Below are positions 19,469 through 48,111 of a stretch of DNA of 64,000 bases, piece by piece. The translations under genes and the position numbers were made by a program. The stretch spans positions 864,001-928,000 of the forward strand of contig CAWIGG010000004.1 of assembly GCA_963835575.1 (NCBI GenBank). Reading direction: 5' to 3'. The notes under the pieces were generated by a model. The model saw nothing but the letters and a program-made list of their open reading frames with translations, had not been told where the DNA came from and searched no databases. The DNA comes from an uncultured Spirochaetota bacterium. Lineage in GTDB: Bacteria > Spirochaetota > Brevinematia > Brevinematales > JAOACQ01. The number at the start of each line of letters is the position of its first letter. The first letter of the stretch is position 1.

Positions 19469-20052
19469 GACCCCAATTCGGCAGGATCAGCAGGATTTGT
19501 CAGGATTCTTGGAATAAAATTTCACAGGAAGACGGGAAGGCACGAAGGGAAATTAACGTCACTTTATTTTTAATTGGAAATGTTCATCATAATTTCTTTG
19601 TGGTAATATCCGATGGTGCACACGGATGATGCAGGTAATGTGGATTTGCACGGATCTTGGGATTGGGTACGACTGAGGTAACCACAGATTTCACAGATTA
19701 CATAGACAGGGAGCGAGGAATCGGAGGAAATTGTTTTGGAGTTGCGCACTGTGAACAAGGTATAGCCTCCTCCTAAAATCCCTATTCACAAATGTCCTAT
19801 ATCATATCCGGCTTCGAATAAAACTTTACAGGCATCGTTAAGTAATACTAAATCCTATAAATCCGCCTTCATCCATGCAATCTGTGTGAAATGGGGTCGC
19901 TCATTAAGCTTTAATAAAACAAAAAGGACATCTCAATCAAAATCTCTCATCTACCGGGCGTAGCCCCCGATTTCAGTCCTTTCCGTGAAATTCTGTGGTA
20001 GACTTCGCGTTTTCCTGTATAATTCTAAAAAAAATCCTGATTTATTGGGGTC
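19469..20052. repeat. Nested mosaic of inverted periodic-repeat pairs with no cargo gene
   Basis: gaccccaatt..caggatt / aatcctg..ttggggtc; cacaggaag..cgaag / cttcg..ttcctgt; accacagatttcac / gtgaaattctgtggt; cacggatga / tcatccatg. Homologues at 27.5, 29.4, 38.7 and 48.0 kb. Confidence 0.75.
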
Positions 20053-20165
20053 AATACTTAAAAGAATTTTAAAGGACAGAACTTTTCTTAATTTATTTTT
20101 GAATTTAAATTCAATCATTTGTATAATTTATACAATTGATTTATATTTTTATCAGGAATAGTATA

Positions 20166-21500
20166 ATGAATAAGGATAAATCTACTCCGCTGTTTGAAAA
20201 CATGAAGCATACGTTCAGGGCTTTCCGGAACAGGAATTACCGGCTTTTTTTCGGCGGCCAGGGTATTTCCCTCGTCGGGACCTGGCTCCAGCAGATCGCG
20301 ATGGGCTGGCTCGTTTACAGTATGACAAACTCAAAATTTCTACTCGGGTTTGTCAGTTTTTCGGGCCAGATACCGCTTCTGTTCCTGACGCCGCTGGCCG
20401 GGGTCCTGAGCGACAGGCTGAACCGCCGGACAATTCTGATTATAACACAGACGCTTTCCATGGTCCAGGCTTTGATATTGAGCGTTCTCGTGTTGACAGG
20501 GAATATACAGGTATGGCATATCATAGTCCTGTCGATATTTCTGGGCACGGTAAACGGGTTTGATATGCCGATACGTCAGGCGTTTGTCGTGGAAATGGTC
20601 GAAAAAAGAGAGGACCTCAGCAATGCCATTGCCCTGAATTCGGCCATGTTTAACGGAGCGCGTTTTATCGGTCCTTCCATCGGAGGTTTGCTCATCGCTG
20701 TTGTCGGCGAAGGGATGTGCTTTTTGCTGAACGGCATTAGTTATATAGCCGTTATTATCGCCCTGTTCCAGATAAGGACAAAGTTCAAAAAAAGAGAAGT
20801 AAAAAAAGAAAAAATCTTAACTGAATTAAAGGAAGGTTTTAAGTACACATTCGGTTTTCCGCCTCTGCGCGACATCATTCTTTTTATCGCGCTGGTCAGC
20901 CTGACGGCTATGCCCTATGCCGTCATCATGCCGGTCTTCGCGAAGGATATTCTCCATGGCGGGCCGCAGTCGCTCGGGTTTCTGATGACGGCTGTCGGCG
21001 CGGGCGCCCTTACGGGAGCGCTTTATCTCGCCTCGCGTAAAAACGTTCTGGGTCTTGGCAAAATCATTGCCGGGGCCGCGCTTTTTTTTGGAACAGGGCT
21101 GATTCTTTTTTCTATTTCCCGTCTGCATTGGCTTTCTCTGGTTATTCTCTATTTTACCGGGATCGGTATGATGATACAGACAGCCAGCTGCAATACTTTA
21201 CTGCAGACAATCACGGATGATGATAAACGGGGAAGGGTGATGAGCTTTTATTCCATGTCGTTCATGGGCATGGCGCCCTTCGGCAGTCTTTTAGTAGGCT
21301 TTTTATCTGACAGGATCAGCGCGCCGGCAACCGTTGCAATCGGGGGTATTTGCTGTATTCTGGCCGGTGTATTATTTTCCAGAAGGCTTCCAGATCTTCG
21401 AAAACTGATTCACCCGATTTATATCAGGAAAGGGATCATAAAGGAGATTGAGATCGGGCTTGAATCGGCCGCTCAGTTGACAAGGCCTCCGGACGCTTGA
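20166..21500 (+). CDS. MFS transporter (MFS_3 / transmembrane secretion effector family)
   Basis: RNYRLFFGGQGIS, GVLSDRLNRR, RGRVMS; about 12 TM helices. Confidence 0.9.
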   Translation: MNKDKSTPLFENMKHTFRAFRNRNYRLFFGGQGISLVGTWLQQIAMGWLVYSMTNSKFLLGFVSFSGQIPLLFLTPLAGVLSDRLNRRTILIITQTLSMVQALILSVLVLTGNIQVWHIIVLSIFLGTVNGFDMPIRQAFVVEMVEKREDLSNAIALNSAMFNGARFIGPSIGGLLIAVVGEGMCFLLNGISYIAVIIALFQIRTKFKKREVKKEKILTELKEGFKYTFGFPPLRDIILFIALVSLTAMPYAVIMPVFAKDILHGGPQSLGFLMTAVGAGALTGALYLASRKNVLGLGKIIAGAALFFGTGLILFSISRLHWLSLVILYFTGIGMMIQTASCNTLLQTITDDDKRGRVMSFYSMSFMGMAPFGSLLVGFLSDRISAPATVAIGGICCILAGVLFSRRLPDLRKLIHPIYIRKGIIKEIEIGLESAAQLTRPPDA

Positions 21501-21506
21501 TTCTCT

Positions 21507-21671
21507 TTATGCCCGGCCGGCCACGCTTTTCATGTACTTCTTCGGTTTTTTAACAAACAAATCCCGGCAATCCTTAGAACAGAAATAATAAGTCTTGTCG
21601 ACAATTTCGATTTCGGCAAACGCATCCCATTTTTCCAGTTCCATTCCGCAAACGGGATCTTTTTCTTTCAT
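21507..21671 (-). CDS. YHS/TRASH-domain protein (54 aa)
   Basis: Manual translation MKEKDPVCGMELEKWDAFAEIEIVDKTYYFCSKDCRDLFVKKPKKY...; ggagg RBS. Not in the ORF track. Confidence 0.85.
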   Translation of the reverse strand: MKEKDPVCGMELEKWDAFAEIEIVDKTYYFCSKDCRDLFVKKPKKYMKSVAGRA

Positions 21672-21788
21672 AAAAACCTCCATCGATTAGATTATTTAAA
21701 TTATAATTCCAGAAACTGTTTGCGTCAAGGCGGTACAACATTTGTTTCTATGCGTTAGAGGCCGGGTAAAATAACAATGCTATTGATT

Positions 21789-21832
21789 TAAGGGCAGTTC
21801 CAAAAACTTTAAGGTTTTTGGAACTGCCCTTA
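21789..21832. repeat. Perfect 19-bp palindrome (REP-like)
   Basis: taagggcagttccaaaaac-N6-gtttttggaactgccctta between divergent genes. Confidence 0.8.
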
Positions 21833-21841
21833 TAATAATTA

Positions 21842-22450: not shown

Positions 22451-22464
22451 AAAAGGGGGTTATT

Positions 22465-22872: not shown

Positions 22873-24659
22873 ATGACATATAAAAAGTATGTTCTTGTCT
22901 GCGGCTGCGCGAACTGCGACAAAAATAACTCGCATGAAATTTATGAAAATATCAATAAAGAACTGATCGCGGAAGGATTAAAGGAAGAAGTCCAGGTGGT
23001 CAAGGCCGGCTGTTTCGGCTTCTGCGGACAGGGGCCTGTCGTGAAAATACTTCCCGAAGAAACGATGTATGTGCATGTCGGGCCGGGCGACGCCGCGGCG
23101 ATTGTCAAAGAACATCTGAAAAATGGAAAGGTTGTAGCGCGCCTTCTTTATGATAAGAGTTTGAGCAGGAAGAACGTCAAAATTAAAGACATGGATTTTT
23201 ATCAAAAGCAGTTCCGCATCGTTTTGCGCAACTGCGGTGTGATCAACCCGGAAAGCATAAATGAATATATAGCCCGCGACGGGTATAAAGCCCTGGAAAG
23301 GGCGTTGTTTGAAATGAAGCCCGGTGATATTATCGAGGAATTGAAAACCGCCGGGCTCCGCGGCAGGGGCGGAGCGGGCTATCCGACATGGAAAAAATGG
23401 GTCCTTACAAAAGATGAGAACTCGGACATCAAGTATGTCGTCTGCAACGCGGATGAGGGAGACCCGGGCGCCTATATGAACCGGAGCACCATCGAAGGCG
23501 ACCCGCACAGTATTCTCGAGGCGATGACTGTCTGCGGCTATACTGTCGGCTCCCATAACGGCTATATCTACATCCGCGCCGAGTATCCGCTTGCCATTCA
23601 AAGGCTGGAAATAGCGATAAAACAGGCGCATGAGCTGGGGCTCCTCGGCAAAAACATCCTCGGAAGCGGTTTTGATTTCGACATCGAGATCCGCCTCGGA
23701 GCGGGAGCGTATGTCTGCGGAGAGGAAACGGCGCTGATCGCTTCCATAGAAGGGAACAGGGGTATGCCGAGGCCCAGGCCTCCATTCCCTTCAGCAAAAG
23801 GGCTCTGGAACAAACCGACCGTGATCAATAACGCCGAAACCTGGGCTAATATTCCCGTCATCCTGACAAAGGGCGGGAAGTGGTTCTCGTCTATCGGCAC
23901 AGAAACATCGAAAGGAACAAAGGTTTTCGCTCTGACGGGAAAGGTCAATAATTCCGGCCTGGTCGAGGTCCCGATGGGGACAACTTTGAGGGAAGTGATT
24001 TTCGACATCGGCGGCGGAATAAAAGACGGCAGAGAGTTCAAAGCGGCCCAGAGCGGCGGGCCTTCGGGCGGCGTCATTCCGGCGGAATATCTGGACACGC
24101 CCATCGACTATGAGAATCTGCAGAAACTGGGCGCCATCATGGGCTCGGCGGGCTGATCGTCATGGACGAGGACGACTGCATGGTCGACATAGCGAAGTTT
24201 TACATGCAGTTCGCCGTGGACGAGAGCTGCGGGAAATGCTCGCCTTGCCGGATCGGGGGAAAACAGCTTCTGGAAACCCTTGAGTTGATCAGTAAAGGAA
24301 AGGGGCAGATGGAGCACCTGGCCAACCTCAAAAGGATTTGTTTCGCGATGCAGAAGGCCTCTCTCTGCGGACTGGGGCAGAATACGCCGAACCCGGTGCT
24401 TTCCACGCTCAAGTATTTCGAGGGCGAATATATCGACCATATTCAGAATAAGAAATGCCATTCCGGATCATGCAAGAGCCTTATCAGCTTTGTTATCGAT
24501 CCTGAAAAATGCATCGGCTGCGGCCTCTGCGCCATGAAATGCCCGGTGAACTGCATCGGCGGTGAAAAACGGAAGCCCTATACGATCGATCAGATCGAGT
24601 GCATCAAATGCGGCGAATGCTTTGAAGTCTGCAAATTCGGCGCCGTGATCAGGCAGTAA
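22873..24659 (+). CDS. [FeFe]-hydrogenase NuoF-like flavin subunit (HydB/HndC), split by a 1-nt frameshift near 24148
   Basis: GRGGAG, NADEGDPG, CGEET, GGPSGG; then ESCGKCSPCR and two 4Fe-4S motifs in the next frame. One added G restores GSGGLIVMD. Confidence 0.88.
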
Positions 24660-26719: not shown

Positions 26720-27484
26720 ATGTTCGAATCCGTAAAATCAAGGATCAGCCATGGTTTTCCATACATTCCGAATATCCGGAAAGCGGGTGTGGACGAAAAA
26801 TTCCGCGGTCTTCCATCATTAAAGAAAAATGTCTGTAAAGACTGCTCATCGTGCGTCGAGGTTTGCCCGACCGGGGCCATCTCGCTTAAATCGTTCAGGA
26901 TAGACATCGGCAAGTGCATCTTCTGCGGCGACTGTGAGAGGGAGTGTTCAAAAGGCGCTGTAAATTTTACACCATTTCATAAAACGGCAGCCTCATCGCG
27001 GGAAGCCCTTATCGTTTCGGAAGGGGATTCTTCCGCCGATTTCGAGAAGAAGGCAATACAGATAGACGAAAAGATACGAAGTATCTTCGGAAGGTCGCTG
27101 AAGCTCCGGCAGGTCTCGGCCGGCGGATGCAGCGCCTGCGAGATGGAGCTCGGCGCCTGCTCGAACGTCAATTTCGACATGGGGCGCTTCGGCATCGAGT
27201 TTACCGCCTCCCCCCGCCATGCGGACGGGATCGTCATAACCGGGCCTGTAACATTTAATATGGCTGAAGCCCTGGAAGACGCCCTGAGCGCAGTGCCGGA
27301 ACCGAAGCTCATCATCGCCGTGGGAAGCTGCGCGATCAGCGGCGGGATTTTTCAGGACTCGCCGGCGATGAAGAGGGATTTTTTCGAGAAGCATAAAGTG
27401 GATTTGTATGTGCCGGGATGTCCCATCCATCCTTTGACGTTTATCAACGGACTGCTGGATTTTACAAGGGGCAAAAGGGATTAG
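26720..27484 (+). CDS. Ehr/Hyf-type small subunit: 2x4Fe-4S ferredoxin fused to a NuoB-like domain
   Basis: CxxCxxCxxxCP motifs, GGCSACE, SPRHAD, GSCA, PGCP. Confidence 0.88.
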   Translation: MFESVKSRISHGFPYIPNIRKAGVDEKFRGLPSLKKNVCKDCSSCVEVCPTGAISLKSFRIDIGKCIFCGDCERECSKGAVNFTPFHKTAASSREALIVSEGDSSADFEKKAIQIDEKIRSIFGRSLKLRQVSAGGCSACEMELGACSNVNFDMGRFGIEFTASPRHADGIVITGPVTFNMAEALEDALSAVPEPKLIIAVGSCAISGGIFQDSPAMKRDFFEKHKVDLYVPGCPIHPLTFINGLLDFTRGKRD

Positions 27485-27620
27485 CCACGAGGCACGGAGG
27501 ATGGGCTACGCCTGACAGATAAAAGCTCTATACTATGAATTCCTTTCTGTTTTATTAAAAATCATGATTCAATCCCAATTTCACACAGATTGCACGGATG
27601 AGGCGGATTGACGCGGATTA
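27484..27620 (+). repeat. Left-hand periodic repeats flanking the kinase gene
   Basis: gccacgaggcacggag; cccaatttcacacagattgcacggatgaggcggattgacgcggatt, near reverse complement of 19860-19897. Confidence 0.7.
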
Positions 27621-27689
27621 TCTGTAGTAACTTATGTTTTGGCTTTTTCTAAAAAAACACTTTTTCAACAATCTCGTAAAGCGGCGAAA

Positions 27690-29216
27690 TTACGCTAAAA
27701 GTAGACGTAACCACTTCTCTATTTCAGCATTTTCAAGTTTTTTCGTTTCTACTTCTCGTACATGCATAGCAACTCTAGAGAGATTATATTCATTATAGAA
27801 TTCGTTACTATCCAAAGCGTAATTTTCTTTATGCGGTCCACGAACTAAAGCAGAATCTTTAAATATAGCAAAATACCATTCTCCATAAATATCATCTTGC
27901 TTTTCTTTCCTTAAAATCAAATTCACGGAATATTCGTTCTTTGTACCACTTAAATTCATCACCCCAACCAAAATTATCAGTTCTTTATCGAAAATTATAC
28001 CTTCAGGTTCTTGCATAACCATTCCATATTTTTGTTTCTGAAATTCTATAGATCTTCTTCTTCGTTCATCTTTATAATTAGCAATCCCATTCACATCAAA
28101 AAATGATATATCTAATGCTCGTTCCATAAAAGATACTCTTAGACTTTCTAAATTATTTCTTTTCCCATTTTTTATGATGAATTTTGCATTTTCTAAGTTT
28201 TTGTTCACAGACTCAACTAGAGAACATACAGAATTAATCAATTCATTGATAGAATAATTTAAATATCGCAACTTCTCCTCATGTTCATCTTGTCTCTTTG
28301 AGCTTTTTGCCAATTCCTCTTCTTTTTTTCTAATAAGCTGATGAGCCATACTAGCAATCGACGTAGCTATATTCGCGTCTTTTGTATTACTTTTAAGAAA
28401 ATCGTTAAGACTCTTAAGTATTTCTTCATCATTTTTATATCGCTGGTCCTTTTTTTTATTTGACATCTTTATGATTATTTCTTTTAATTTTATAGGAACA
28501 TCGCTTCTATTTGTACTTAAATCCGGTAACGGTTCAAATAGATGACACTGTCTATAATCTTGTGGTGTTGCACAAATATAGGGTTTCTTAAGTGTTAAGA
28601 TTTCAAAGAACATTATCCCCATTGAATAAATGTCCATTGAAATCGTATTTGCTTCTCCAAGCCATGCTTCAGGAGACATATAAGCATAAGTCCCTGCACC
28701 TTTAAAAGAGAATGTTTTTGTTGATTCATCTACATATTTTGACATTCCAAAATCGCAAACCTTAGCTGTGCCATCCACATCAATTAATATATTATTCGGC
28801 TTCAAGTCTCTATGTATCACTTTTTTATGAGCATATTCCAATCCTTTCAATATATCTGTAAAAATACTATAGCATTTATCCAAAGGCAACATAACCTTCT
28901 GCGTTTTTAGAAATGCATCTAGGCTGCCATTAGGCATATATTTCATTACCAAATAAAAATAATCACCCGCATCACTTTCTCCAGAATAGTAAGTACTTAT
29001 TATATTAGCATGTGCTAGTGTGGCGGATATATCTATTTCTCTTTTTAAGGTTTGTCTATATTGCTCATCAAAGATAGGGGCAATTTTTATTGCCACTTTC
29101 GTTTTATTTATTAAATCATCAGATAGATAGACGTCGCCAAATCCACCTGCATTAATTTTTGTACCAAGCTCATACTGTTCACTGCTTTCAGGACCTCGTA
29201 ATTTATTCATGACCAC
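27690..29216 (-). CDS. Hanks-type Ser/Thr protein kinase with uncharacterised C-terminal domain
   Basis: GGFGDV, VAIK, HRDLKPNN, DFG, SPE; markedly AT-rich. Confidence 0.92.
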   Translation of the reverse strand: MVMNKLRGPESSEQYELGTKINAGGFGDVYLSDDLINKTKVAIKIAPIFDEQYRQTLKREIDISATLAHANIISTYYSGESDAGDYFYLVMKYMPNGSLDAFLKTQKVMLPLDKCYSIFTDILKGLEYAHKKVIHRDLKPNNILIDVDGTAKVCDFGMSKYVDESTKTFSFKGAGTYAYMSPEAWLGEANTISMDIYSMGIMFFEILTLKKPYICATPQDYRQCHLFEPLPDLSTNRSDVPIKLKEIIIKMSNKKKDQRYKNDEEILKSLNDFLKSNTKDANIATSIASMAHQLIRKKEEELAKSSKRQDEHEEKLRYLNYSINELINSVCSLVESVNKNLENAKFIIKNGKRNNLESLRVSFMERALDISFFDVNGIANYKDERRRRSIEFQKQKYGMVMQEPEGIIFDKELIILVGVMNLSGTKNEYSVNLILRKEKQDDIYGEWYFAIFKDSALVRGPHKENYALDSNEFYNEYNLSRVAMHVREVETKKLENAEIEKWLRLLLA

Positions 29217-29295
29217 TTTTACTCCCTCATATGAAATTTGTATTACGTCTTACTTCATATAAGCAAATTTAATATATGTGAATTTTCTCCCCTTC

Positions 29296-29324
29296 ATCTT
29301 AATAAAGCCCAATTCACCTGTCAA
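29296..29324 (-). promoter_or_regulatory. sigma70 promoter, repeated module copy 1
   Basis: TTGACA-ggtgaattgggctttat-TAAGAT on the minus strand. Confidence 0.7.
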
Positions 29325-29344
29325 GACCGATATCGGGACGCAAT

Positions 29345-29510
29345 AATCTGATCCGTGAAAATCCGCATCATCCGCCTAATCCGCGTGCCGAATCGGATCA
29401 GTACAATAAGGCGGCAATTATTATAGAATTACAATAGCTTAACAAAGGCATTGAAATGAAATAATTCTCTGTGCCCCTGTGTCTCGATAGCGAATTCTCT
29501 GTGGCGGTTT
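29345..29510 (-). repeat. Right-hand periodic repeats flanking the kinase gene
   Basis: atccgtgaaaatccgcatcatccgcctaatccgcgtgccgaatcggat, then ctctgtgcccctgtg and ctctgtggc; inverted relative to 27484-27620. Confidence 0.7.
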
Positions 29511-29521
29511 ATCCTGTAATT

Positions 29522-30178
29522 CTATTTATCCTTCCATAGTGTCTCGCCCTTTATGAGCCATGAAACGCCGAAAGCCCATAGAGTGAATGATTCCAGAATC
29601 AAATCGGGTTTGATAATTGAAATTATTGAAGTCTTTAAAAAGAATTCATATATTCCAATCAAGATTATAGAAATGACTATTATGATACCGCAGGCTCTAT
29701 ATATTCTATTTCTCACTATTTTTTGACCGGTCATTATTTTGGCGTTGCTTTTTGTAAACAGGAAGAAGGATATAAAAGCCAGTATCCCGAAGAATAAGCC
29801 GGCGCATATAAAATGAATTACCCCGGAAATATGATCGCTGATCTGAAATGTCCCGACTATTACGGCCTGATCACTTCCTGTAAATGTCGGAAACAGAGTC
29901 ACTCCAAGAGCGCAGGCCCCGCAGATTGTCGCTATAATATCGTCAAAATTACCGTAACCTTTGTAAGAGATTAAAAACAGGGCCAATCCGCATGTAATGC
30001 CGATAAAAACATCCCTCAAATTCGTATAATAATAACTGCTGATCGATTCCTGGATCGCTTTTCCCGCGATCAAACCGCCGATGAATAAAATAAACGGCAG
30101 GATAATCCCTAAAATACCGAGAATCCGGCGCATTGTTAAATACGATATTGTCAGACAATTGCTCTTTGGAACAGGCAT
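29522..30178 (-). CDS. Hypothetical membrane protein (DUF998-like)
   Basis: About six TM helices; SISSYYYT, FPT, IHFICA; aggagg RBS. Confidence 0.75.
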   Translation of the reverse strand: MPVPKSNCLTISYLTMRRILGILGIILPFILFIGGLIAGKAIQESISSYYYTNLRDVFIGITCGLALFLISYKGYGNFDDIIATICGACALGVTLFPTFTGSDQAVIVGTFQISDHISGVIHFICAGLFFGILAFISFFLFTKSNAKIMTGQKIVRNRIYRACGIIIVISIILIGIYEFFLKTSIISIIKPDLILESFTLWAFGVSWLIKGETLWKDK

Positions 30179-30315
30179 TGTTTCCTCCTTAAAGTTTTAG
30201 GTATTACTTCTGATATAATGCAAATTACAGAAATTTAGAGATTGCCGGGCGATTTTGCCAAAAGTGTACTCGCCGCAGCCGGCAACTTGATTTTAGACGT
30301 TGTAAAGAAAAAGTG

Positions 30316-30780
30316 TTATTCAACAACATTAAATCCCAATTTTGCATATAATTTCATCGCCGGTTCATTCCCTTCGAGTATTTTTAATGTAACTTCCATA
30401 CTTCCTTTTGAAAGTATTTCATTAACTGCATATTTTGTTAATTTTGAGCCATAACCTTTTCGCTGAAATTTCCTATCAATACTGAGAGATTGAATATAAT
30501 TATTAAGAAATAGTATAGACCCTATTAAATAATTGCCTATATCAAAGAGGAAATAAAATGTATCCTTATTTTTATTAAAAAATGATTTTATCTCACTTAA
30601 TTCTGATTCGGATGATTCGTTTATCCTGTGAGGAGTTATATTGTTTTTTCCCCGTAATTCGTAAAATAAGTCTGATTCCAAATCAAGTTCCATTTTAAAA
30701 TAATCATCACAATATTTTACCGGATTAATTTCCGGATCTTCATATATGGGTCCTTTATAAACTAATTTTAATTCATTCAT
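30316..30780 (-). CDS. GNAT family acetyltransferase
   Basis: FQRKGYGSKL and NEPAMKLYAKLGF motifs; AT-rich. Confidence 0.85.
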   Translation of the reverse strand: MNELKLVYKGPIYEDPEINPVKYCDDYFKMELDLESDLFYELRGKNNITPHRINESSESELSEIKSFFNKNKDTFYFLFDIGNYLIGSILFLNNYIQSLSIDRKFQRKGYGSKLTKYAVNEILSKGSMEVTLKILEGNEPAMKLYAKLGFNVVE

Positions 30781-30794
30781 TTGTCAGCCGCTTT

Positions 30795-31133
30795 TCAGAG
30801 GGCGTCTTCCCCGGTCTGGCCCGTCCTGATGCGGATGGCTTCCTCAATAGTGCTGATAAATATCTTCCCGTCGCCATGCTGGCCGGAATGGCAGATCGTC
30901 CGTATTTTTTCCACGATCTTTTCAACAAGCGCCTCGCCGGTGACTATTTCCAGCTTGGTTTTCGGGACCAGCGAAACATCGCCCTCGGCGAACTCGATGA
31001 TGCTCTGGTGCCCGCGCTGGTGGCCGAAGCCTCCTGCCTCGATAACGGTAATTCCCTGGACCCCCAGGTCTGAAAGGGCCTTCTGGATTTCAGCCAGTTT
31101 GGAACGGCGGATAATCACCTCTATTTTCTTCAT
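30795..31133 (-). CDS. P-II family nitrogen regulator, divergent T-loop
   Basis: MKKIEVIIR, GFGHQRG, PKTKLEIV, GDGKIF, IRIRTG; 112 aa from ATG 31133. Confidence 0.9.
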   Translation of the reverse strand: MKKIEVIIRRSKLAEIQKALSDLGVQGITVIEAGGFGHQRGHQSIIEFAEGDVSLVPKTKLEIVTGEALVEKIVEKIRTICHSGQHGDGKIFISTIEEAIRIRTGQTGEDAL

Positions 31134-31436
31134 GAAGGGGCCTCCTGAACTGTCAATTATAAAAAATATAACCATATCTTACTGATGATATAAAAAAATT
31201 ACAATAAAATAAAAAATGCCGTATTTCCCGCGAAGATTTTCAATACAAAATTTCAACGGGATATTATTTCACAGTCATATTATTTCAATTTATATTTCTG
31301 ATCCGGAAAACTTTCAGATAAAACTGAAAATATTTCATTCAGGCCCCCATCCTTAATACGTAATGTTTGATTTTTCCGCCGTTCCGTGCTAAAATTTTGA
31401 ATTAGTTTTTTAGAGGGGCAGGTCATAGAGTAGAGT

Positions 31437-38579: not shown

Positions 38580-38860
38580 TAACAGGAAGGCATCCCTTGG
38601 CTGTGCTCGGGACAGGCTCCGGCGGGAAGGGAAGAATATAAACGTATCTTCTATTATAATATTTAAACTAATGTAAAAGAAGCCTGATTGTAATATCCGA
38701 TTTTTCACACGGATGACGCGGATTTTAAAGGATTTAGTTTTACGCTGAGCAGCTTTTTTATTGATGATATCTGATAGAGTCTTATATTAACCACGAAGTT
38801 CGCGAAGAACACGAAGAGGGTTGGAAAGGTGGGCTGCGCCCGGTGGATAAGGCTTTGAGA
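38580..38860 (+). repeat. Left-hand periodic repeat cluster at the start of the defence block
   Basis: taacaggaag..gggaag; taatatccgatttttcacacggatgacgcggatt (38691-38724); accacgaagttcgcgaagaacacgaag; gggctgcgcccggtgga. Confidence 0.7.
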
Positions 38861-38895: not shown

Positions 38896-40605
38896 TTATA
38901 TCTTAAAATATTTTTTCTCTGCTTTTTTAGCTATTTTTAAAATAGAATCCAACTTTTCACTTACTTCCTTGTCAATTTCCTCGGGTTTTGCCATACTAAC
39001 CAATTTGTAATAACGGCTTTTATCCATTAAAATCACAGAATTAATCTTTTTATAAAAATCCCTGAATACTTTATCGAGAAAATCATCACTCATTTTTGTC
39101 GTATTCCACCATTCGTTCATTTTATCTTTTTTTGCCACACCAGGAATATAATCATCGATTATATTTTTAATTATTGACGGATAAGTCTGAGTAAATAATT
39201 CTTTTCCATATTCTTCAACAATAAAACGCTCAATAACAACCGGCAATGGCAAATAATTTTCTATTTCGTTTTTATCCCACATTAACATTTTGAAATATTC
39301 ATTACTCTGAAGTTTAGCCGGAATTTTATCAAATATGGCGATGCCTGATAAATCAGGCATTGCTTCTTTTAACCCGTAAAAATGATTTTCGGCTGATGAC
39401 GGCCGGTTTGAATCAACAGTTCTGACGAATGCTTCTTCAAGGTACTTTAAAACGGGATGTCCTAATAATTTGGCAAAGGCTTGAAGTATCAAATGATCGG
39501 TCGTCCCTTCGAGATAAAGGACCCATTTCTTTTGTTCTGCAAGAACGTACTGATCAAAACCAATACTATTCAGTGATTTTACGAGCTGCTGAGTCTTATT
39601 CACACGGTGGGGATCACCGATAAACCCTATTATTGTATCCTTTTCCGCAGCCTCGTTAAGCACTGCTTCCGAGTGTGTGGCAATTATTAATTGTGATTTC
39701 TGATTCTTAATGGTTTCTGAAAGTGTGTTATAAATCTCTTTTTGCCTGATAACTTCAAGATGGGCATCCGGTTCATCAAGTAAAAGAATTGTGTTTTCAT
39801 TGCTGTAAATATAAGAAAATAACAGCAGGATTTGCTGAAAACCCCTTCCGGAGTTGGAAAGAGCCATATTTTTCTTGGAATCTTCGCGATAAGTCAACAA
39901 CAGCTTTCCCGTACCGGCATCATAAACCGGATCATCTAAATCAACAAGGAAAAACCTTTTTATGAGACTTTTTAATTCCTTCCATTTTCCATTACTGCGC
40001 TGATAGACATTCCAGCATAGGTTTCTCAGGACTTCCGCGGTCCTTCCCTCGCCGATCCTGCCCTGAATCGATCCGGGTTCAAGTTTGTCTTCCTCGCTCG
40101 CAAGTCCCGACATTGGAGGAAGAAAACCAACGCGTTCGTTTATAACTTCTTCCGGAAAAGGCAGAGGTTTCCCATTTTCATCACCCAGTATCCGGCAATA
40201 AATAGATTCGGGATTTGCATAATCAAATTCAAAACCCAGAGACCATTTAGTGTTTGAAGTAAAGCCTTCGGCTGTAATTTTTATCCTGATATTCTCCGTA
40301 CCTCTTTTACCTTCTTTTTTTATAAAACTTTTTCTGACATTGAGATCGCTCCATAATTGAAGCGCGGAGGGTAAAGGCATAGAAAGGAGTTCTTTACGGT
40401 TTATTGTTATACCTGTTCTCTGCTTCGCTTTGGTTGTACGGGAATGTTCATACCACCTTCTCATCCCGATACTCCAGAGAGAAATAGCCTGCAATGCTGT
40501 GGTTTTACCGGAATTATTCGGTCCTATAAAAGCGACAACAGGAGTCAGGTCAATTTCAACTTTTTCCAGTTTTTTAAAATTTTCAATAAAAAGTCTGGTT
40601 AACAT
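38896..40605 (-). CDS. ABC-type AAA ATPase with TOPRIM-like C-terminal domain (OLD/AbiEii-like)
   Basis: IENFK, GPNNSGKT, SGRG signature, LLLDEPDAHL, IATHS, YLEGTTD. Confidence 0.8.
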   Translation of the reverse strand: MLTRLFIENFKKLEKVEIDLTPVVAFIGPNNSGKTTALQAISLWSIGMRRWYEHSRTTKAKQRTGITINRKELLSMPLPSALQLWSDLNVRKSFIKKEGKRGTENIRIKITAEGFTSNTKWSLGFEFDYANPESIYCRILGDENGKPLPFPEEVINERVGFLPPMSGLASEEDKLEPGSIQGRIGEGRTAEVLRNLCWNVYQRSNGKWKELKSLIKRFFLVDLDDPVYDAGTGKLLLTYREDSKKNMALSNSGRGFQQILLLFSYIYSNENTILLLDEPDAHLEVIRQKEIYNTLSETIKNQKSQLIIATHSEAVLNEAAEKDTIIGFIGDPHRVNKTQQLVKSLNSIGFDQYVLAEQKKWVLYLEGTTDHLILQAFAKLLGHPVLKYLEEAFVRTVDSNRPSSAENHFYGLKEAMPDLSGIAIFDKIPAKLQSNEYFKMLMWDKNEIENYLPLPVVIERFIVEEYGKELFTQTYPSIIKNIIDDYIPGVAKKDKMNEWWNTTKMSDDFLDKVFRDFYKKINSVILMDKSRYYKLVSMAKPEEIDKEVSEKLDSILKIAKKAEKKYFKI

Positions 40606-40681
40606 AAATTGCCCCTTGGATTTTTTGATTAAGATTTATTTTAACATAAATCTTATTATTTGTCTTTTCAAATTCTAATGT

Positions 40682-43600
40682 TTATTCCATTATCTCATCT
40701 ATTTTCCCCATCACCCGTTCAGTCTCCACAAGAGCGGCAATTATCCGCTGGTAGTGTAAGATTTCGTCAAATGTTAAAGTGCGCCCTTTCCTGTCCTTCA
40801 GCCACTTCTGCGCGGGCTGGTAGCCGCCGATGTAGAACTCCCAGCTGATTCGGGAACTCCTCCGAAGAATTGCTTTTTATTGATCCATACTTTGCCATAA
40901 TTTTTAACCTTAGATTTTACCTGTTCTTTCTCAAAAATCACTTTTTCCACTTCATTATTCCCCGTTTCGGGATAAGCGGTAATTAAATTTTCAAGCAGCG
41001 GAGATTCCATCAGATGTAATTTCCTCAATACGGCCCCTTTTTCCGCAAGTTTAAAAAATATTTTAGCGCTTTCAGGATACGGTATTCGCGGAAAGTCTAT
41101 TTTTAAGAATTCCTTATATTTTTCCCGGTAGGAAGGCGAATGGAGTACGGCATAAATATAGTCGAGAATGTCCAGCGGGGTAAAGTATTTCTTCGCTCCT
41201 TTAGTTTTTTGAATAGAATCATTGTCATCTTCTTCCTTGAATTCCAGCCCAATTTTCCCGGCGATAGCATTCACGATTTCCATGTTTAGGTTAGGACGGC
41301 GATGTTCCGAAAAGCGACGATTCGAATCGTCGCTTTTCGCTTCGAAATCAAATTCCCCATCGTCGTCGTAGAGGTAGAGAGGAAATATTTTACAATTATC
41401 AAATGGCGAAACGCCATCCTTATCAACAATTTTATTTGAAATGAAATAATTAGTAACATTACCTCTTCTTGAATTTCTAATTGCTAATAGACATATATTT
41501 TCTTTTAACATATTATTCATTAATGGGCTTCGTGGATAGGCCATAAAACCCTTACTTTTTCCAGTAAAATAAGTATACCTATCATCAAAAGGATGGTATA
41601 GTACATTATTTTCGACCCCATTATTATTCTTTATATCATCCATAGCCCATTTAATAGACCAATCTCTTCCATCTTCACCCAAATTATACTTATATCTTAT
41701 CTCCTCTGTTGACAATTGTTTTAAATCAATAATAATTTTTAATAATTCTTCCTTAGAAAAAGAATAAACTAGATTATCCCTTTTAGTTTGTATTCCAGTA
41801 TTATTTGAAATAAATATTGATTCAATATTAAGTCCTTTATTATATTCTTCATCCAATCTAAAATCTTTTGGTACAAAAAAACAATACGGTTCAACAGGGT
41901 CAAGCTTCAACCATTTCAAAGATAAAATATTACTATTCCAGAGTTTATCATACTTAACCTCCCGTTCACCAAATACATCAAAATGAAAAACAGAAGATAA
42001 TTCTTTTTTCTTTCCACCATTCTTTACAAAAATATTGATTGATACCCCTTGCTGGATATCGAAAACATTTTCATCCTTGCTTCCATCCGGTGAAGTTTCT
42101 TTTTTCTTTGAATTTCCATGGAGATCATAAATATAAATTTTATCGAAAGTTTCCATCAGGTGCTTGCGCATCTGCCGGTGTGTAATGCCGTCGATATAGG
42201 AATTGTTTGTGATCATTGCCACAATACCCTGGCCGTTTTTCTCGATAAAATGCTCGGCATAGCGGATAAATTTTATATAATCGTCGTCAAGATTCAGTTT
42301 CTTCTCATTCAATCCTTCCTTATAGCACTTTATCTGGGAACGTATCCAATCGCCGGTATTGCTGGAACTGACGCTGTACGGAGGATTGCCGACCACGACC
42401 ATGACGGGCATATCCTCCTTGACCTTATTCGCTTCCTTCGCCTCAAAGGAAAGCCACTGCGCGAAAGTGGTGTTGATTGTGGCTCCCGGCTTTTCCAGGC
42501 TGTTGGTCAGGTAAATTCCCAGGCGGGGGGATCGGTCGGTAAAAGTGTAGCCGGTTTCCTGGAAAATGAATTCCATCTTGAGGTGGCACATCGCGTAGCT
42601 TGCCATCAGGATTTCGAAGCCATGCAGGCGGGGAAGAAGATGCTCGTCCACATAGCCGTTCCAGACGCCTTTCTGGGATTCGAAGCTTTTATAAATCCGC
42701 CTGATAATTTCAGCGAGGAAAGTCCCTGTGCCGGCAGCCGGGTCTAAAATCTGCACCCGGTGGGATTCAATCTTAAATAATCCCCCCGCGATGTTTTCAT
42801 GTTCCACCTCGACTTTTGAAGTATCAGCCAAGCCCATCTTAAGGCCGAATTCGGATTTCAGAATATCGTCCACGGCGCGTACAATAAAACTCACAACAGG
42901 TTCGGGGGTATAATAAACCCCGCGCGATTTCCGCTGGGCGGGATCGTACTCGGCAAGGAATGTCTCATAAAAATGGATTACCGGGTCATGACGGGCGGTC
43001 GCGTCTCCAAAGTCTGCCATAATCTTATTCAAGTCACACGCGAGGAATAGATCGGCCAGCGCGTCTACAATCCAGTCGATGCTGTTGTCCAGTTCGGGTC
43101 CGGCCACATAAGAGAAAAAATTCCTGAGAAATAGATTGGATTTCGGAACGAGGAATAAGGCTTCCTGACGGGAAAAAGTTTCCATTGTTTTATCATGAAT
43201 CCTCGCGGCGAATAGGCCGTATGCTACCGTCTGAGAGTAAATATCGGCAAATTGATGTTCGGTCATATCATGAATCAGTACTCTCTTAAATGACTGGTAC
43301 TGGCTGTAAAGGGTATTGGACGAATCACCGGAGTGATCCGGTTTTTGAAGCGTTAACGCATTATAAATAATATCACGCATCAATCGCGCCTTGTCTGCCA
43401 TCATCCGGGCGAGCTTTTCCGCGGATGTAATAGTCTGGCCCCTGTAATCACAGAAATCTCGGATCATATCCTCAAAAACAGGCCAGTCTTTTTCACAGGG
43501 TTTAAGTTTGCCGCCTTCGATTTCAGCGATTCGAGCCGTCATTTCTTTTTGCCCTGCGCGGAAAAGCCGGAATTCCAGGTAATCTGTCAGGATAAGATTG

Positions 43601-43878
43601 TCAAGGCTTTCAAGGTATTTTTTAAGCTGATCGTCTTTCTCACTTTTATCAAGCGAAATACCAATATCTTTTGTTTCAACATAACCGACTGGTATTTCTT
43701 TCCGGGTGATAATCAAATCTGGCGCGCCGCATTCCTGGCGTCTGGGTTCATTTGTTACTTTTATTTCAGGTATAATGCTTTCAATCAGCCCTTCAAGATC
43801 GGAACAATAACTGTGCTCGGTAGCAATTCCATCATTAAAAAGCCTTTTTATATTTGAAAAATAATCAGCTATCGTCAT
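40682..43878 (-). CDS. Single-chain restriction-modification enzyme (type IIG/IIL-like, N6-adenine MTase, ISP-type specificity domain); 1-nt frameshift near 40845
   Basis: GAPD..VETK nuclease motif, GVYYTP, ILDPAAGTGTF, GNPPY, YAVLHSPSYR..DFPRIP. Alternate frame continues WEFYIGGYQPAQKWLKDRKGR to TAA at 40682. Confidence 0.85.
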
Positions 43879-44079
43879 AATATACCTCAAATAATTATAA
43901 TTACAAATTAATATATTATAACAAATTAAAGATTTAAATCAAAACTTTCATTTGTATTTTTATTTCTTTATAACCATTGCACTCCGTTTTCTTCTCTGAA
44001 AGTCCGGGAAAGCCTTTTGATTTTTCCTGATGCTCACTTTGCTGAAGCCAACGGAGCGGCCAGCCAGTTCTCCGTTCTT

Positions 44080-44245
44080 CCGTTCCCGAGGCCATTTTCC
44101 TCCTGGCCATAATCTGAACATAAATCAACTCAATTTAAAGTCGTGTTATCTGTTAACATTATAATAGAAGAGAGGCAAATGTTTTTGACATAGCCTGCCC
44201 CCGATCCAATCGAGAGGATGTCAAAACCGATGCATAAAGCCATCG
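44080..44245. repeat. Structured repeat A, copy 1
   Basis: ccgttcccgaggccattttcctc.tggccataatctgaacat ... attataatagaagagagg ... gcataaagcca, shared with 45490-45630. Confidence 0.8.
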
Positions 44246-44288
44246 GCACATAAAGGAATTTTGTTTATTATTTTTTTCTCATCATCGT

Positions 44289-44638
44289 TCCCCGGCGGGG
44301 GCAGAGAGTGAACTTTTCTGGATGCGTCACTTCATTAATTATGGAATTGTAATACAGAGCATCGCGCAGAGGGCTTAGTTTTGCCCGTGACCGGCCGGCT
44401 TGAACGCGCGGAATGTCCGAGCATACCCATTGTCCATAAATTCGAAATCAAGACAGACTAATAAAGAATATTTGATAAATTACTTTCAATGGGTGTGCGA
44501 GTTCCGAGCGTGCGGCCGGGAGCGGATGCAAAACTAGCACTCGAAGCGAATGCGTTCTTTAGTCTGAAATTATGAGAAAATGATTAAATATCAGCGTCCA
44601 GAAAAGTTCACTATCTACCTTTGCCTATCGCTGGGGGA
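44289..44638. repeat. ~350 nt imperfect fold-back element (MITE-like or structured RNA)
   Basis: Perfect 16-bp IR agtgaacttttctgga (44307-44322) / tccagaaaagttcact (44597-44612); inner stems tagttttgc/gcaaaacta, ccggccg/cggccgg, acccattg/caatgggt. Confidence 0.75.
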
Positions 44639-44681
44639 CAATCTGCAGTGTGGCACAGCGCCAGCAGTGCCTCCTTTTCCC

Positions 44682-44850
44682 TTCTTTTCGAAAAGAAAGA
44701 AATATCGTAATTCCCCCGGCAGCCTGTCGGAATAATAATCCCCAATAGCTTAATAAAAAGAAAAGACGTTGACCCTTCAGCCAGAAGGCGATGCCCTTTT
44801 GACCTTGCAAAAGAAAGTGAACAAAATCCCCCGGCAATCGTTGCCGGTCT
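44682..44850. repeat. Repeat B copy 1 followed by repeat C
   Basis: ttcttttcgaaaagaaagaaatatcgtaattcccccggcag... matches ~45809-45915; aagaaagtgaacaaaatccccggcaat matches ~50904-50935. Confidence 0.8.
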
Positions 44851-44879: not shown

Positions 44880-45095
44880 TTAAATATTATCTTTAAACTC
44901 GGATAGAGTGATATTGGCCTGTCTGAGAATACTGCGGAAAGTACCTTCAGGAATTTCTTTCTTATCCATCGGTAATATGACAATGTTCCCTTTTCCATTC
45001 TTATATTTTGCGTGGGAACCTTTTTGAGAAATAAAAGAAAATCCCAATCTTTCCAGGACTGATGAGATTACTCTTGATGAGTAAAGCTTAGACAT
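44880..45095 (-). CDS. hicA: HicA family toxin
   Basis: 71 aa; LERLGF..SQKGSH..GTFRSILRQA. Confidence 0.9.
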   Translation of the reverse strand: MSKLYSSRVISSVLERLGFSFISQKGSHAKYKNGKGNIVILPMDKKEIPEGTFRSILRQANITLSEFKDNI

Positions 45096-45294
45096 GGACC
45101 TTTTCCCTTCCGATGAAAACCTGGTCTACTTCAGGGAATTCCTTATCCTCATTTTCAAAATAAAGTTCAACAGCCTCTTTAAGATTAGTAACAGCCTCGT
45201 CTGAATTATTTCCAAAAGAGGAAACATCCACATTCAAACACTGTGAAACATAATATTGGCCTTCATGCCAGACAACATATTCGATTTCTTTCAT
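45088..45294 (-). CDS. hicB: HicB family antitoxin (short form)
   Basis: YVSQC..VSSFG..EAVTNLKEAVELYFE; overlaps the hicA start. Confidence 0.88.
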   Translation of the reverse strand: MKEIEYVVWHEGQYYVSQCLNVDVSSFGNNSDEAVTNLKEAVELYFENEDKEFPEVDQVFIGREKVHV

Positions 45295-45489
45295 AATAGA
45301 GCCTCTCTTTAAAAAAAGAATAAAGGTAATTAAGCGTAAAATCAAGTTTTAAAGTATTCGTTTATTTTTGTATAACAGACAGGAATGTCTGTTATACCGG
45401 ATTAACCGGCGCCAATTCCCATCTTTAAAAAGAATGTTTTATCATAAATAAAATGAATAAGAATTAAAAAAAGCTGTTCGGCAAATTGT

Positions 45490-45915
45490 CCGTTCCCGAG
45501 GCCATTTTCCTCTTGGCCATAATCTGAACATCAAATATCTCGATATAAAGTTGTGGCATCCGCTATTATAATAGAAGAGAGGAAGCACATGCTTGCGGCA
45601 GGGACGCCGCAACCGCCGCATAAAGCCACGCCCAGCACCACTTTGATTGCCTGTCCTCAAAGTGGTGCTGGGCAAGGATAGCGATTTAAGGCGGCTATTA
45701 TAGCAATGAACTGCTTATTAAAAAGCCGGATAACACACCTCCATACGGTCCGATAGCTTCGTATGAAAATGGCCTCGACCTGTTTTCTTTCTTTAGCGCG
45801 ATATTTCTTTCTTTTCGAAAAGAAAGAAATATCGTAATTCCCCCGGCAGTCTGTCGGACTAATAATCTCCAATAGTTTAGTAAAAAGAAAAGACGTTGAT
45901 CCTTAACCAGAGGCT
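45490..45915. repeat. Structured repeat A copy 2 plus repeat B copy 2
   Basis: Homology to 44080-44245 and 44682-44795; cgaggccattttc pairs with gaaaatggcctcg (~45765); 17-bp perfect hairpin at 45630-45673. Confidence 0.8.
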
Positions 45916-45954: not shown

Positions 45955-47073
45955 TTACGCTAGTAAAAGCTTGATAGGCAGCGCCCCGTTCAACAACGCG
46001 ATTTCTTTGTTTGCTTTAAGCGAAAGCAAATGGACCGGCGCATCCGCCGGAACGAGCAGCGCGATGCGCCACGCCGAGAACCGCTCATGGATGACCCTGC
46101 CTATGTCTTTGAACAATGCGCTGATTCCGCTGCCCCCGATGCGTTCGCCGTAGGGCAGATTGGCGATCAGGAGACCGCCCGGCGCGGGAGGCGTCCACTC
46201 CTGGAAAGGCTTTACTGAAAATGCGATATACTTTTCAACACGGGCGCGCAGCGCGGAGGCGCGAGCCACGTCGACATACTTGGCGTTGATGTCCGAAGCA
46301 TAGATCGGCGCCGGCAGTTCGGACTTTTTAGCCGCGCGCAATTGATCGGAAACGCGGCGCCACAAAGGGCGGTCGAAACCGGCCAGGTGCTCCAGGGCAA
46401 AATCGTCTTTGCCCCGGTGAATGAGCGGCGCTTTATTCAGAGCGATATATGCCGCTTCGATGATAATGGTGCCGGAGCCGCACATCGGATCAAGGAGCGG
46501 TTCATTGCCGGTGTAGCCTGCCAGAAGCAGGATCGAAGCGGCCAGTGTCTCTTTCAAAACGGCCGGATGCCCGCCTGTACGCCAGCCGCGTTTATGAAGG
46601 GCGCGGCCCGCCGTGTCGATGCCGAGCGTGCAGGAACCGTTCCGGACGAATACAACGATGGTAATGGGCTCGTCGGCGTCGGGATCGAACCGGGGAGCGG
46701 ACTTTTCAAACGCGCTATTTTGTATCGATTGAACGATGGATGTAATAACCGCTTCCTCGCCCAACGCAATAGCTTGTTGATCGGTGAGGGCCGGCGCGAC
46801 CGTGAAAGGCTTATGCGAGCGCAGCCATTCCGGCCAGACGATCTTCTGCAGTTCCATCCTCAGATGTGTTATGTCAGGAGTGGCGAATTCCGCGACCACG
46901 CGCTGAATTCTGCTTGCTGTACGCAGTAACAAATGGGCGCGGTACGCGGTCTCCAGATCAGTGTCGAACGCTACGCCGCGGTGCAGTATATTCAGGTCTT
47001 TTATTCCAAGCCCGGCAAGTTCGGAAGCGAGCACATCGACAGTCTCGTGCGGGCATGTGGCAATCCATCTCAT
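45955..47073 (-). CDS. THUMP-domain RNA methyltransferase (RlmL-like), copy 1
   Basis: LRTASRI, LHKRGWR, LKETLAA, LLDPMCGSGT, NLPYGER; GC-rich. Confidence 0.9.
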   Translation of the reverse strand: MRWIATCPHETVDVLASELAGLGIKDLNILHRGVAFDTDLETAYRAHLLLRTASRIQRVVAEFATPDITHLRMELQKIVWPEWLRSHKPFTVAPALTDQQAIALGEEAVITSIVQSIQNSAFEKSAPRFDPDADEPITIVVFVRNGSCTLGIDTAGRALHKRGWRTGGHPAVLKETLAASILLLAGYTGNEPLLDPMCGSGTIIIEAAYIALNKAPLIHRGKDDFALEHLAGFDRPLWRRVSDQLRAAKKSELPAPIYASDINAKYVDVARASALRARVEKYIAFSVKPFQEWTPPAPGGLLIANLPYGERIGGSGISALFKDIGRVIHERFSAWRIALLVPADAPVHLLSLKANKEIALLNGALPIKLLLA

Positions 47074-47206
47074 AAAGTTTGAGACCTCAACCGATTAGAT
47101 TTTGACAGGTCCGGCGATAGAGCGAAATTATGTTTAACGTCCTCGATAAGCGAAGCTGCCGAAGTTTTTACTAAAGCCGAGGTAAGTGAACAACTTTGTG
47201 ACTCTA

Positions 47207-47482
47207 TTACACTATCTCAATTTTTACTTTTTTTCCTAATGCCTTTGCGATACGTTCCAGGGATGATAATTTTAAATCTTCGGCATGGTTTTCCATTCTT
47301 GATATGGCGCTTTTTGTCGTGTGAATCCTGCCAGCTAAATCTTCCTGGGTTAATCCGTTTTTGATCCTCATTTCTTTCAACATCAATCCGATTTTAAAAT
47401 CATTGTAATTTTCATCATAGTTTTCAGCGAAAGAAGGATCGGATTTTTTCCTTTTATCGACGTATTTTTTTAAATCACTCAT
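47207..47482 (-). CDS. XRE-family HTH antitoxin (HigA-like)
   Basis: GLTQEDLAGRIHTTKSAISRMEN; overlaps the toxin stop codon. Confidence 0.88.
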   Translation of the reverse strand: MSDLKKYVDKRKKSDPSFAENYDENYNDFKIGLMLKEMRIKNGLTQEDLAGRIHTTKSAISRMENHAEDLKLSSLERIAKALGKKVKIEIV

Positions 47483-47829
47483 ATATTCCTCCGTAAATAA
47501 TCGGCTTTGTATTTTTCAGCCAGTTTGATTTCATTTTCAGGTGTTTTTTGGGTCTTTTTGGTAAAACCATTAGTTAATATAAACAGTGCGTTTTTATGAA
47601 AGAATCCTAATAATCTGTAAGTATCACTTCCCTGTTGAATCCTGACTTCGTAGATATTGTCAGTATTCACTAATTTTTTAAAATAGTTTTGCGGAATTTG
47701 ATCAAAGTCTTCAATAATCTGCAATACCCATGTAATTTTCCGGGCTGTTTTTCCCGGTAAAGAATCAAGATATTCTTCAACCGGACATTTTCCATCCTCG
47801 GTTTTATAAAAGTTAATGACTCTTTTCAT
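47479..47829 (-). CDS. RelE/ParE (Gp49/HigB-like) toxin
   Basis: FYKTEDGKCPV, IYEVRI, YRLLGF, NGFTKKTQKTP; likely ATG at 47829. Confidence 0.88.
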   Translation of the reverse strand: MKRVINFYKTEDGKCPVEEYLDSLPGKTARKITWVLQIIEDFDQIPQNYFKKLVNTDNIYEVRIQQGSDTYRLLGFFHKNALFILTNGFTKKTQKTPENEIKLAEKYKADYLRRNI

Positions 47830-47834
47830 ATTAT

Positions 47835-47863
47835 ATGTTAGCATACATGTGAACATTAGTCAA
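47835..47863 (-). promoter_or_regulatory. sigma70 promoter of the TA operon, probably giving a leaderless mRNA
   Basis: TTGACT-17 nt-TAACAT ending 5 nt upstream of the ATG; imperfect palindrome atgtta..tgaacat. Confidence 0.55.
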
Positions 47864-47954
47864 TAGCATTTATAGCAATCTTGTATCAGGTTATCGTTTA
47901 ACTAGCGACATTAATGAGTTATTGTTTTATGGGTTTTAAGATTGACCAAAAGAT

Positions 47955-48111
47955 AATCCTGTAAATCCTGTGTTATCCTATAAATCCTGCCGAATTGGGG
48001 TCAGTATAATTAAGATATTCTAATTTTCAATTTCCGGCAGGATATGAAGAAATCATCTGATCTGTGCGAATCCGCATAATCTGTGTCATCCGCGTGCAGA
48101 ATCGGATATTA
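47955..48111 (-). repeat. Right-hand periodic repeat cluster
   Basis: aatcctgtaaatcctg..aatcctgccgaattggggtc (reverse complement of 19469); 48078-48111 is a 29/34 inverted match to 38691-38724. Confidence 0.75.

Follow-up and report, generated by a model that had tools for sequence, protein, structure and literature searches.

What are short, phased repeat arrays doing when they face one another in the spacers of a bacterial chromosome, in some places around nothing and in others around genes that look foreign? The question is raised by a 64,000-nucleotide stretch (hereafter the window) of an uncultured Spirochaetota bacterium of the Brevinematales (GenBank assembly GCA_963835575.1, contig CAWIGG010000004.1, forward strand, positions 864,001 to 928,000; C4:864001-928000 of the genome labelled G000, which has 4.39 Mb in 7 contigs and is 94% complete). 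The window is occupied by housekeeping, hydrogenase and transport operons. A first-pass annotation had seen in its arrays landing pads or ends of non-autonomous elements acted on in trans. Our analysis gives an even chance to one form of this idea: that the arrays are the ends of small non-autonomous mobile elements, moved in trans by the GxxExxY protein, a putative nuclease, and that their centres take up other DNA. Taken as a whole, the earlier idea largely stands once a 9-kb pair and a rule of opposite cargo orientation are dropped from it. We infer the mobility of the elements and the role of the enzyme; the bias for foreign genes between the ends was tested and is strong, and the element family, for which no description was found, looks undescribed.

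Each end, or arm, is an array of about three 7-base words (heptamers) such as cacggat, acaggat, acaggaag, cacgaag and cacagat. Direct reading of the sequence confirmed the motif families first noticed in the window, whose non-coding DNA (11,443 bases) holds 20 word doublets against a mean of 0.22 and a maximum of 2 in 300 shuffles. Over the whole genome, non-coding arrays of at least three words number 457, where three Markov simulations gave 6, 9 and 2. The period had been put at 8-9 nt and has to be corrected to 9-10 nt, since the genome-wide recurrence of intergenic 5-mers peaks at 9 nt (1458) and 10 nt (1518), with 461-724 at 6-8 and 11-13 nt. Nor do left arms as a rule follow the 3' ends of plus-strand operons: both polarities occur in the genome (228 left, 229 right), and the impression stems from the gene layout of the window, where left arms stand at 4585, 19470/19524/19608/19680, 27484/27574 and 38580/38695/38789, and right arms at 4747, 19897-20051, 29398/29500 and 48001/48107. 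The median distance from an arm to a stop codon is 57 nt. The centre of an element is variously a short AT-rich loop, another such element, an insertion sequence (IS), a GxxExxY gene or a foreign gene; closed elements have a median span of 120 nt as a whole. Scans with arm-end patterns found word arrays at only 1 of 38 matches in genomes, the rest being about what chance gives, and at 1 of 80 among the matches listed for metagenomes, so exact termini are either lineage-specific or too short for searching. By eye, a TATAAT-like sequence precedes many cacggat arms.

The arms are polar and pair inward by word family, as had been suspected from the window, and their genome-wide orientation is not random. 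Among 130 pairs of successive arrays less than 150 nt apart, 73 are left-right and 8 right-left (26 left-left, 23 right-right). Sequence-matched partners face inward rather than outward 42 times to 1 under 150 nt, then 7/1, 9/0 and 3/1 in successive distance bins, 11/1 at 1.2-2 kb, 6/2 at 2-3 kb, 6/2 at 3-5 kb and 14/10 at 5-10 kb. A bracket parser with a limit of 6 kb returned 116 inward pairs, against 24 when the left and right labels were swapped as a control; in the window these are 412-498, 4585-4747, 27574-29398 and 19608-19897 inside 19470-20051. The last case bears out the nesting that had been proposed, which is clear at single sites and weakly tested overall; 8 of the 116 parsed pairs are nested, and a fixed order of word families within nests can be made out only in part.

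In the 69 closed pairs the words of the two arms agree by family. The cgcgaat family has two end types, A and B, which combine as 36 A/B, 2 A/A and 0 B/B pairs (14 unclassified). Because the ends differ, the elements themselves are polar; this polarity showed no bias with respect to the leading or lagging strand. At 5 of 5 close right-left junctions an A end meets a B end of the same word family, and B-to-A junctions number 9 in G000 and 6 in another genome, G008. Arms, linkers and an inner tail are homologous among 26 aligned copies, so composite arms are copied as units; the consensus of the conserved tail in cacggat arms has no open frame. Selection for base pairing between arms is absent in the 69 pairs, where the match to the partner arm is 47% for bases between words, under the 54% of within-family shuffles. 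Compared with shuffles, the 19.5-kb, 4.6-kb and 412-498 sites of the window fold with z of 0.08, -0.99 and -2.74, respectively. A target duplication at a fixed offset was not found in the closed pairs: flanking 5-, 6- and 8-mer repeats are at chance level, and 4-mer repeats (44 against a mean of 33 and a maximum of 40) share no offset. Old age of the copies could have erased such duplications.

The link between periodic repeats and GxxExxY genes that the first-pass annotation had mentioned is borne out in this genome. The PF13366 (PD-(D/E)XK) profile finds nine genes over the cut-off, some partial or broken, all of them outside the window, as had been stated; by eye, all nine lie between inward arms of one word family. 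They are members of the GxxExxY/PDDEXK_3 family (TIGR04256, PF13366), and one of the proteins matches TIGR04256 with an E-value of 5e-42. Among 106 distinct homologs from the phylum, 53 have at least two inward words on both sides and 14 have outward ones. The last base of the word goes with the protein motif: G-ending words accompany 43 of 44 GPGLxE proteins and T- or A-ending words 21 of 24 GxGFxE proteins, in a count that required at least three words and excluded 34 rows below that number and 4 whose motifs were different. On a quick tree, with 43 rows unlabelled and some labels crude, the word labels change 35 times against 57.4 when shuffled, and none of 200 shuffles was as low. A survey of 301 genomes found a PF13366 match in all 22 genomes with at least 20 triple-word matches (20 of these strong) versus 61 of the 279 others, and in 41 of the 52 genomes with at least five triple-word matches.

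Both motifs and modelling point to a PD-(D/E)XK nuclease fold for this protein. D71, K83 and Q95 are invariant and E81 nearly so in an alignment of 85 proteins, which have the family residues GxxExxY, D..ExK and QxxxY. The structure model has a predicted local distance difference test (pLDDT) score of 91.6. Its best Foldseek match is Cas4 SSO0001 (E 1.2e-4, TM 0.56), with lambda exonuclease also near, and the best VIA-align hit has a Z of 7.8 and a root-mean-square deviation of 3.4 over 100 aligned residues, with no single closest family; no relative of solved structure was found by sequence. In the accessible part of one source, PF13366 is tabled with the function 'Unknown' (PMC3424549). A literature search, with most subscription papers and supplements outside its scope, found no description of a pairing between repeat arrays and GxxExxY. 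Two observations may be added here. By eye, two GxxExxY genes (L006 and L009) have a sigma-70-like TTGAAA...TATAAT spacing upstream, between left arm and start codon. A parallel pairing of gene and array is seen at G000:C6:2181-2540, where a four-helix-bundle (PF05635) gene is flanked by inverted agctaac-type arrays.

What lies between the arms is strongly biased. Taking genes below 35% GC as low-GC (434 of 3472 genes in the background) and using only intergenic gaps that hold arms of one direction, we found that 65 of 218 genes faced by an arm are low-GC, against 2 of 218 behind one. With GxxExxY genes excluded, the counts are 45 of 193 and 2 of 207, in agreement with the earlier suggestion that low-GC, defence-type cargo lies on the inner side. 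The 276 low-GC islands repeat the picture: 54 lie in front of an arm and 9 behind, and 15 are bracketed inward on both sides, none outward, so enrichment at the borders of accessory genes is not lacking. The bias is strongest for cacggat (29 of 66) and acaggat (8 of 16), the families found at the cargo sites of the window. Cargo had been described as opposite in orientation; genome-wide it is mixed (29 opposite, 27 same). The 34 bracketed genes selected for family scanning include a kinase, DUF2971, IrrE with DUF4411, a ClpP-like protease, PIN and MNT-HEPN pairs, Panacea with a type ISP enzyme, a methylase and five IS genes (those inside arms being of IS256, IS481, IS5/IS1182 and IS110 type); about 11 of the 34 have no Pfam family.

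Comparison with relatives identified several of these units as insertions, as had been anticipated. In 4 of 4 congeners polA lies next to dprA; in G000 an arm, a 225-aa low-GC gene and a second arm lie between them, so that gene content is not identical between relatives. The spacer between the ABC-F gene and cysS lacks the 4.6-kb element in 3 of 4 congeners (G001, G002 and G004, where it is short and armless) and is rearranged in the fourth. The congeners are only about 70% identical in protein, and exact element ends therefore cannot be set. Among 13 regions chosen for having arrays, low-GC genes between inward arms were also found in G004, G002, G025 and G006. The most elaborate arrangement is on a 4.7-kb contig of G008, with tandem genes for PIN with DUF2281, RelB with YafQ, PIN with a small partner and a CopG-like protein. 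Right-arm/left-arm blocks stand between the cassettes (L293, G008:C63, 747-3600), which are of mixed orientation; two of these blocks, between different toxin-antitoxin cassettes, agree at 108 of 114 positions (95%). This ties gene gain to the duplication of arms.

In the window, three sites are gene-less. The smallest, additional to those noted earlier, is a closed element with cgcgaat/cgctaa words at 412-498 on the minus strand, just after lemA and with its A-end facing the stop codon. A cgcgaat-family element follows each of two lemA paralogs: the one here is empty, that at G000:C6:112655-113140 is filled with a GxxExxY gene, and the genes downstream of the two elements differ. Between the ABC-F gene and cysS there is a closed element of the acaggaag family (4585-4747, no strand assigned). 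Its centre has 24% GC, and the description of the pairs as enclosing only AT-rich filler holds for this site. It does not hold at 19.5 kb, where the putative filler (19700-19850) has 41% GC and the whole is a nested composite, a stack of four left and five right motifs. The left stack (19469-19700, plus strand) consists of acaggat at 19470, acaggaag/cacgaag at 19524, cacggat at 19608 and cacagat at 19680. The right stack (19762-20052, minus strand) has a cacggat-type arm with the conserved tail at 19897, gggctacgcc at 19968, cacagaa at 19999, acaggaa at 20018 and acaggat at 20051. Positions 19536-19697 share 70% identity with the left arms at a site that is filled with a gene, and 19762-19987 have 84.5% identity over 226 nt to the left half, a composite arm, of a site elsewhere in the genome that holds a DUF2971 gene and whose layers are nearly symmetric (74/73, 43/42 and 198/194 nt).

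The site at 27.5-29.5 kb is filled. Its left composite arm (27484-27620, plus strand) has cacgag/cacggag words, gggctacgcc, a linker and a cacggat arm at 27574; its right arms (29345-29520, minus strand) are a cacggat arm at 29398, a cacagag arm at 29465-29500 and a single acaggat word at 29511-29520. Between them, on the minus strand, lies a gene for a Ser/Thr kinase of 508 aa and 32% GC (27690-29216). Its kinase domain is similar to the anti-phage kinases MAD6 and PD-T4-6, and it may have a role of this kind. No match in the Atlas was found for the C-terminal part, and no locus with relatives of the kinase was found in viral or metagenome contigs. Of 5 relatives, 2 have the gene that ends at 27484 immediately before the gene at 31437, and the kinase cassette is therefore an addition, as are the three genes beyond the right arm.

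The block at 38.7-48.1 kb is less simple. A left stack (38580-38845, plus strand) with acaggaag at 38580, cacggat at 38695, cacgaag at 38789 and gggctgcgcc at 38831 is followed, all on the minus strand, by an AAA ATPase (AriA/AbiEii-like) gene with a type ISP/IIG restriction-modification gene (38896-43890) on the inner side of the stack, a HicA toxin gene with a 68-aa probable HicB partner that has no family match (44880-45294), a first rlmL-like copy (45983-47115) and a RelE/Gp49-like toxin with a helix-turn-helix (HTH) antitoxin at 33% GC (47207-47856), directly inside the right arms. The two right arms (47955-48111, minus strand), acaggat at 48001 and cacggat at 48107, lie just past the stop of the second rlmL-like copy. 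The cacggat arms at 38695 and 48107 are of one family, with no other arm in the stretch between. The block had been read as one captured pair, and we do not accept it as a single 9-kb unit: successive cacggat arms 6-12 kb apart are inward in 4 and outward in 7 cases, with no enrichment, and the general inward excess has likewise faded at 5-10 kb. Moreover, only the cacggat arm of the left stack has a right arm of its family further on, which leaves two left arms partnerless; the first rlmL-like copy has 58% GC, does not look foreign and is 95.9% identical to the second (48167-49297); and another repeat family lies inside. Most probably, the site was opened by several later additions and a duplication rather than by one capture. 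The ATPase gene and the RelE-HTH pair each lie directly inside an arm stack, matching the inner-side rule of the genome. No syntenic orthologs were found for the major facilitator superfamily, rlmL and 218-aa genes. As to the details of this region, the tandem rlmL-like copies have the RelE-HTH pair and two arms between them, and by eye the 3' end of the first copy seems to carry a short inversion. The separate repeat family, of about 400 nt, lies at 44060-44800 and 45370-45900, where it frames the HicAB pair; it has some 25 or more copies in the genome (70-89% identity), one of which holds another 400-nt repeat, and it adjoins restriction genes elsewhere too.

How could such a system work? 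GxxExxY would be a minimal Cas4/lambda-exonuclease-like PD-(D/E)XK nuclease that would bind its cognate words on one face of the helix and cut at or between the arms. In their full form, the elements would carry the gene of this small nuclease. Together with host repair, it would copy elements in trans and leave no target duplication. Where a resident element is broken, in its centre or at an end, the break would be patched with other elements, giving nesting and head-to-tail junctions, or with foreign DNA, giving cargo. The sites at 0.4, 4.6 and 19.5 kb would then be gene-less members and that at 27.5-29.4 kb a cargo-filled one. A bolder proposal, which we put forward tentatively and with some doubt, is that a stand-alone nuclease of 125 aa mobilises a new class of elements, its subfamilies reading different heptamer arrays, and that cut resident copies act as programmed landing pads which take up defence and toxin-antitoxin genes and can expand into repeat-gene-repeat arrays, an integrase-free capture spread over hundreds of chromosomal sites.

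Several observations weigh against the view that GxxExxY moves the arms and that their centres take up DNA. No movement, excision or cutting was observed. None of the nine GxxExxY genes of this 94%-complete assembly has cacggat or acaggat arms, the most cargo-bearing families; 53 of the 106 homologs fall below the two-sided word criterion; and 11 of the 52 genomes with at least five arrays, G008 included, have no PF13366 match. Simple co-inheritance can produce the co-variation of words and proteins, and related genomes do not count as independent cases. Within arms there are also IS genes and a RAYT gene. At the kinase site the DNA missing from congeners (27485-31436) extends 1.9 kb beyond the right arm, so the arm pair does not delimit the whole insertion. 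An order test without the nesting rule gave 7 nested against 2 crossing pairs (p 0.18). Finally, GxxExxY aside, the bracketed low-GC genes lack a second armed copy in the genome, and for two cargo genes, 16 homologs in other genomes were all without arrays; both facts favour local uptake over cassettes that travel far.

These points bear on what else the arms might be. It is possible, if rather unlikely, that the elements spread with GxxExxY and then serve as passive landing pads, with cargo entering through IS activity, an integron-like recombinase at secondary sites or illegitimate recombination because AT-rich centres are neutral, accessible DNA. The IS and RAYT genes inside arms, the armless homologs and lack of armed duplicates, the random cargo orientation and the kinase insertion reaching past its arm would all fit. 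However, the centres are a small target, given the size of closed elements, and yet low-GC islands are faced by arms six times as often as they lie behind them; the near-identical junction blocks of G008 also speak against passive pads. We consider it improbable that the arms owe their movement to some other enzyme (a RAYT/TIRYT-type HUH transposase or a host factor) and that GxxExxY is just the commonest passenger, perhaps a toxin or selfish nuclease. The cacggat/acaggat arms, which lack a cognate GxxExxY here, start with GACCCCAAT, whose complement fits the GGGGWSAS of TIRYT-flanking repeats (PMC3733652), the genome has one RAYT gene, and G008 has fresh junctions without a PF13366 match. Yet the palindromes flanking the RAYT gene are different, of the GTAGAGACG type, the word type co-varies with the GxxExxY subfamily over deep divergence, every array-rich genome has a GxxExxY gene, and the arms are not selected for pairing, unlike HUH hairpin substrates. 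Very improbable, in our view, is that the arms are RNA or regulatory structures, be it terminators, RNase III-processed intervening sequences or sites of nucleoid or silencing proteins around foreign genes. Their closeness to stop codons and the better-than-shuffled folding of the short empty element at 412-498 would agree with this, as would a layout like that of rRNA intervening sequences with an internal gene, so far as the accessible part of the source describes them (PMC4990558). Against it stand the low match between partner arms, the 19.5-kb and 4.6-kb sites that fold no better than shuffles, the congeners without elements at the same junctions and the copying of composite arms as units.

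If GxxExxY indeed moves these elements, a widespread family of unknown function would gain a concrete, testable substrate and a predicted code that relates the protein motif to the last base of the word. Small elements would have a non-HUH, non-DDE route of mobility, and the landing places of many single defence and toxin-antitoxin genes in environmental bacteria would be explained. Facing ends that enclose foreign, defence-like genes point to an unrecognised route of gene acquisition in bacteria. Arms can also serve as an easy marker in the search for new defence genes, considering how many of the bracketed genes are familyless.

Apart from the arms, two features of the window deserve mention. 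A NuoF/HydB-like hydrogenase subunit (22873-24659) is split into two frames near 24150, where unrelated contigs have one extra base, so a frameshift or assembly error is likely. At 53069-63229 there are two tandem giant kinase-AAA-GAF sensors with GGDEF and SpoIIE outputs, about 67% identical in part.

How do these elements compare with known systems? Integron cassettes are co-oriented genes, each followed by attC, next to an integrase and attI. The stockpile of low-GC defence and toxin-antitoxin genes and the repeat-gene-repeat array in G008 resemble them, whereas the cargo described here lies in either orientation and at dispersed single sites. No attC architecture was seen by eye at arm junctions, and no integrase was found on the 4.7-kb G008 contig or among the 44 window proteins scanned; these also gave no transposase match, in line with what had been reported for the window. 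Miniature inverted-repeat transposable elements with cargo, namely TIMEs (PMC4133298) and integron mobilization units (PMC3184786), are alike in that non-autonomous ends bracket passengers, are thought to be moved in trans and have AT-rich targets. As described in the accessible parts of these sources, their terminal repeats are 38 bp long or IS-like, their target duplications measure 5-6 bp and their transposase is of the DDE type. Here, in contrast, no fixed-offset duplication was found, and a single pair of ends encloses the cargo, which does not lie between two complete elements. REPIN/RAYT systems, so far as the accessible parts of two sources describe them (PMC3337134, PMC3733652), share hundreds of small intergenic inverted doublets, group-specific pairing, a variable spacer, tandem arrangements and a short enzyme gene flanked by the same repeats; two repeats of the same group inverted around a spacer were confirmed here. 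The single RAYT gene of the genome (G000:C2:500549-501097, L215) lies with its own palindromes within a stack of word arms. What the word arms tightly frame is not an HUH/Y1 transposase gene but the GxxExxY genes. In other words, the partner here is a PD-(D/E)XK nuclease instead of an HUH/Y1 enzyme, the ends are phased word arrays without selection for pairing instead of palindromes, and, unlike in REPIN/RAYT systems, they enclose whole foreign genes.

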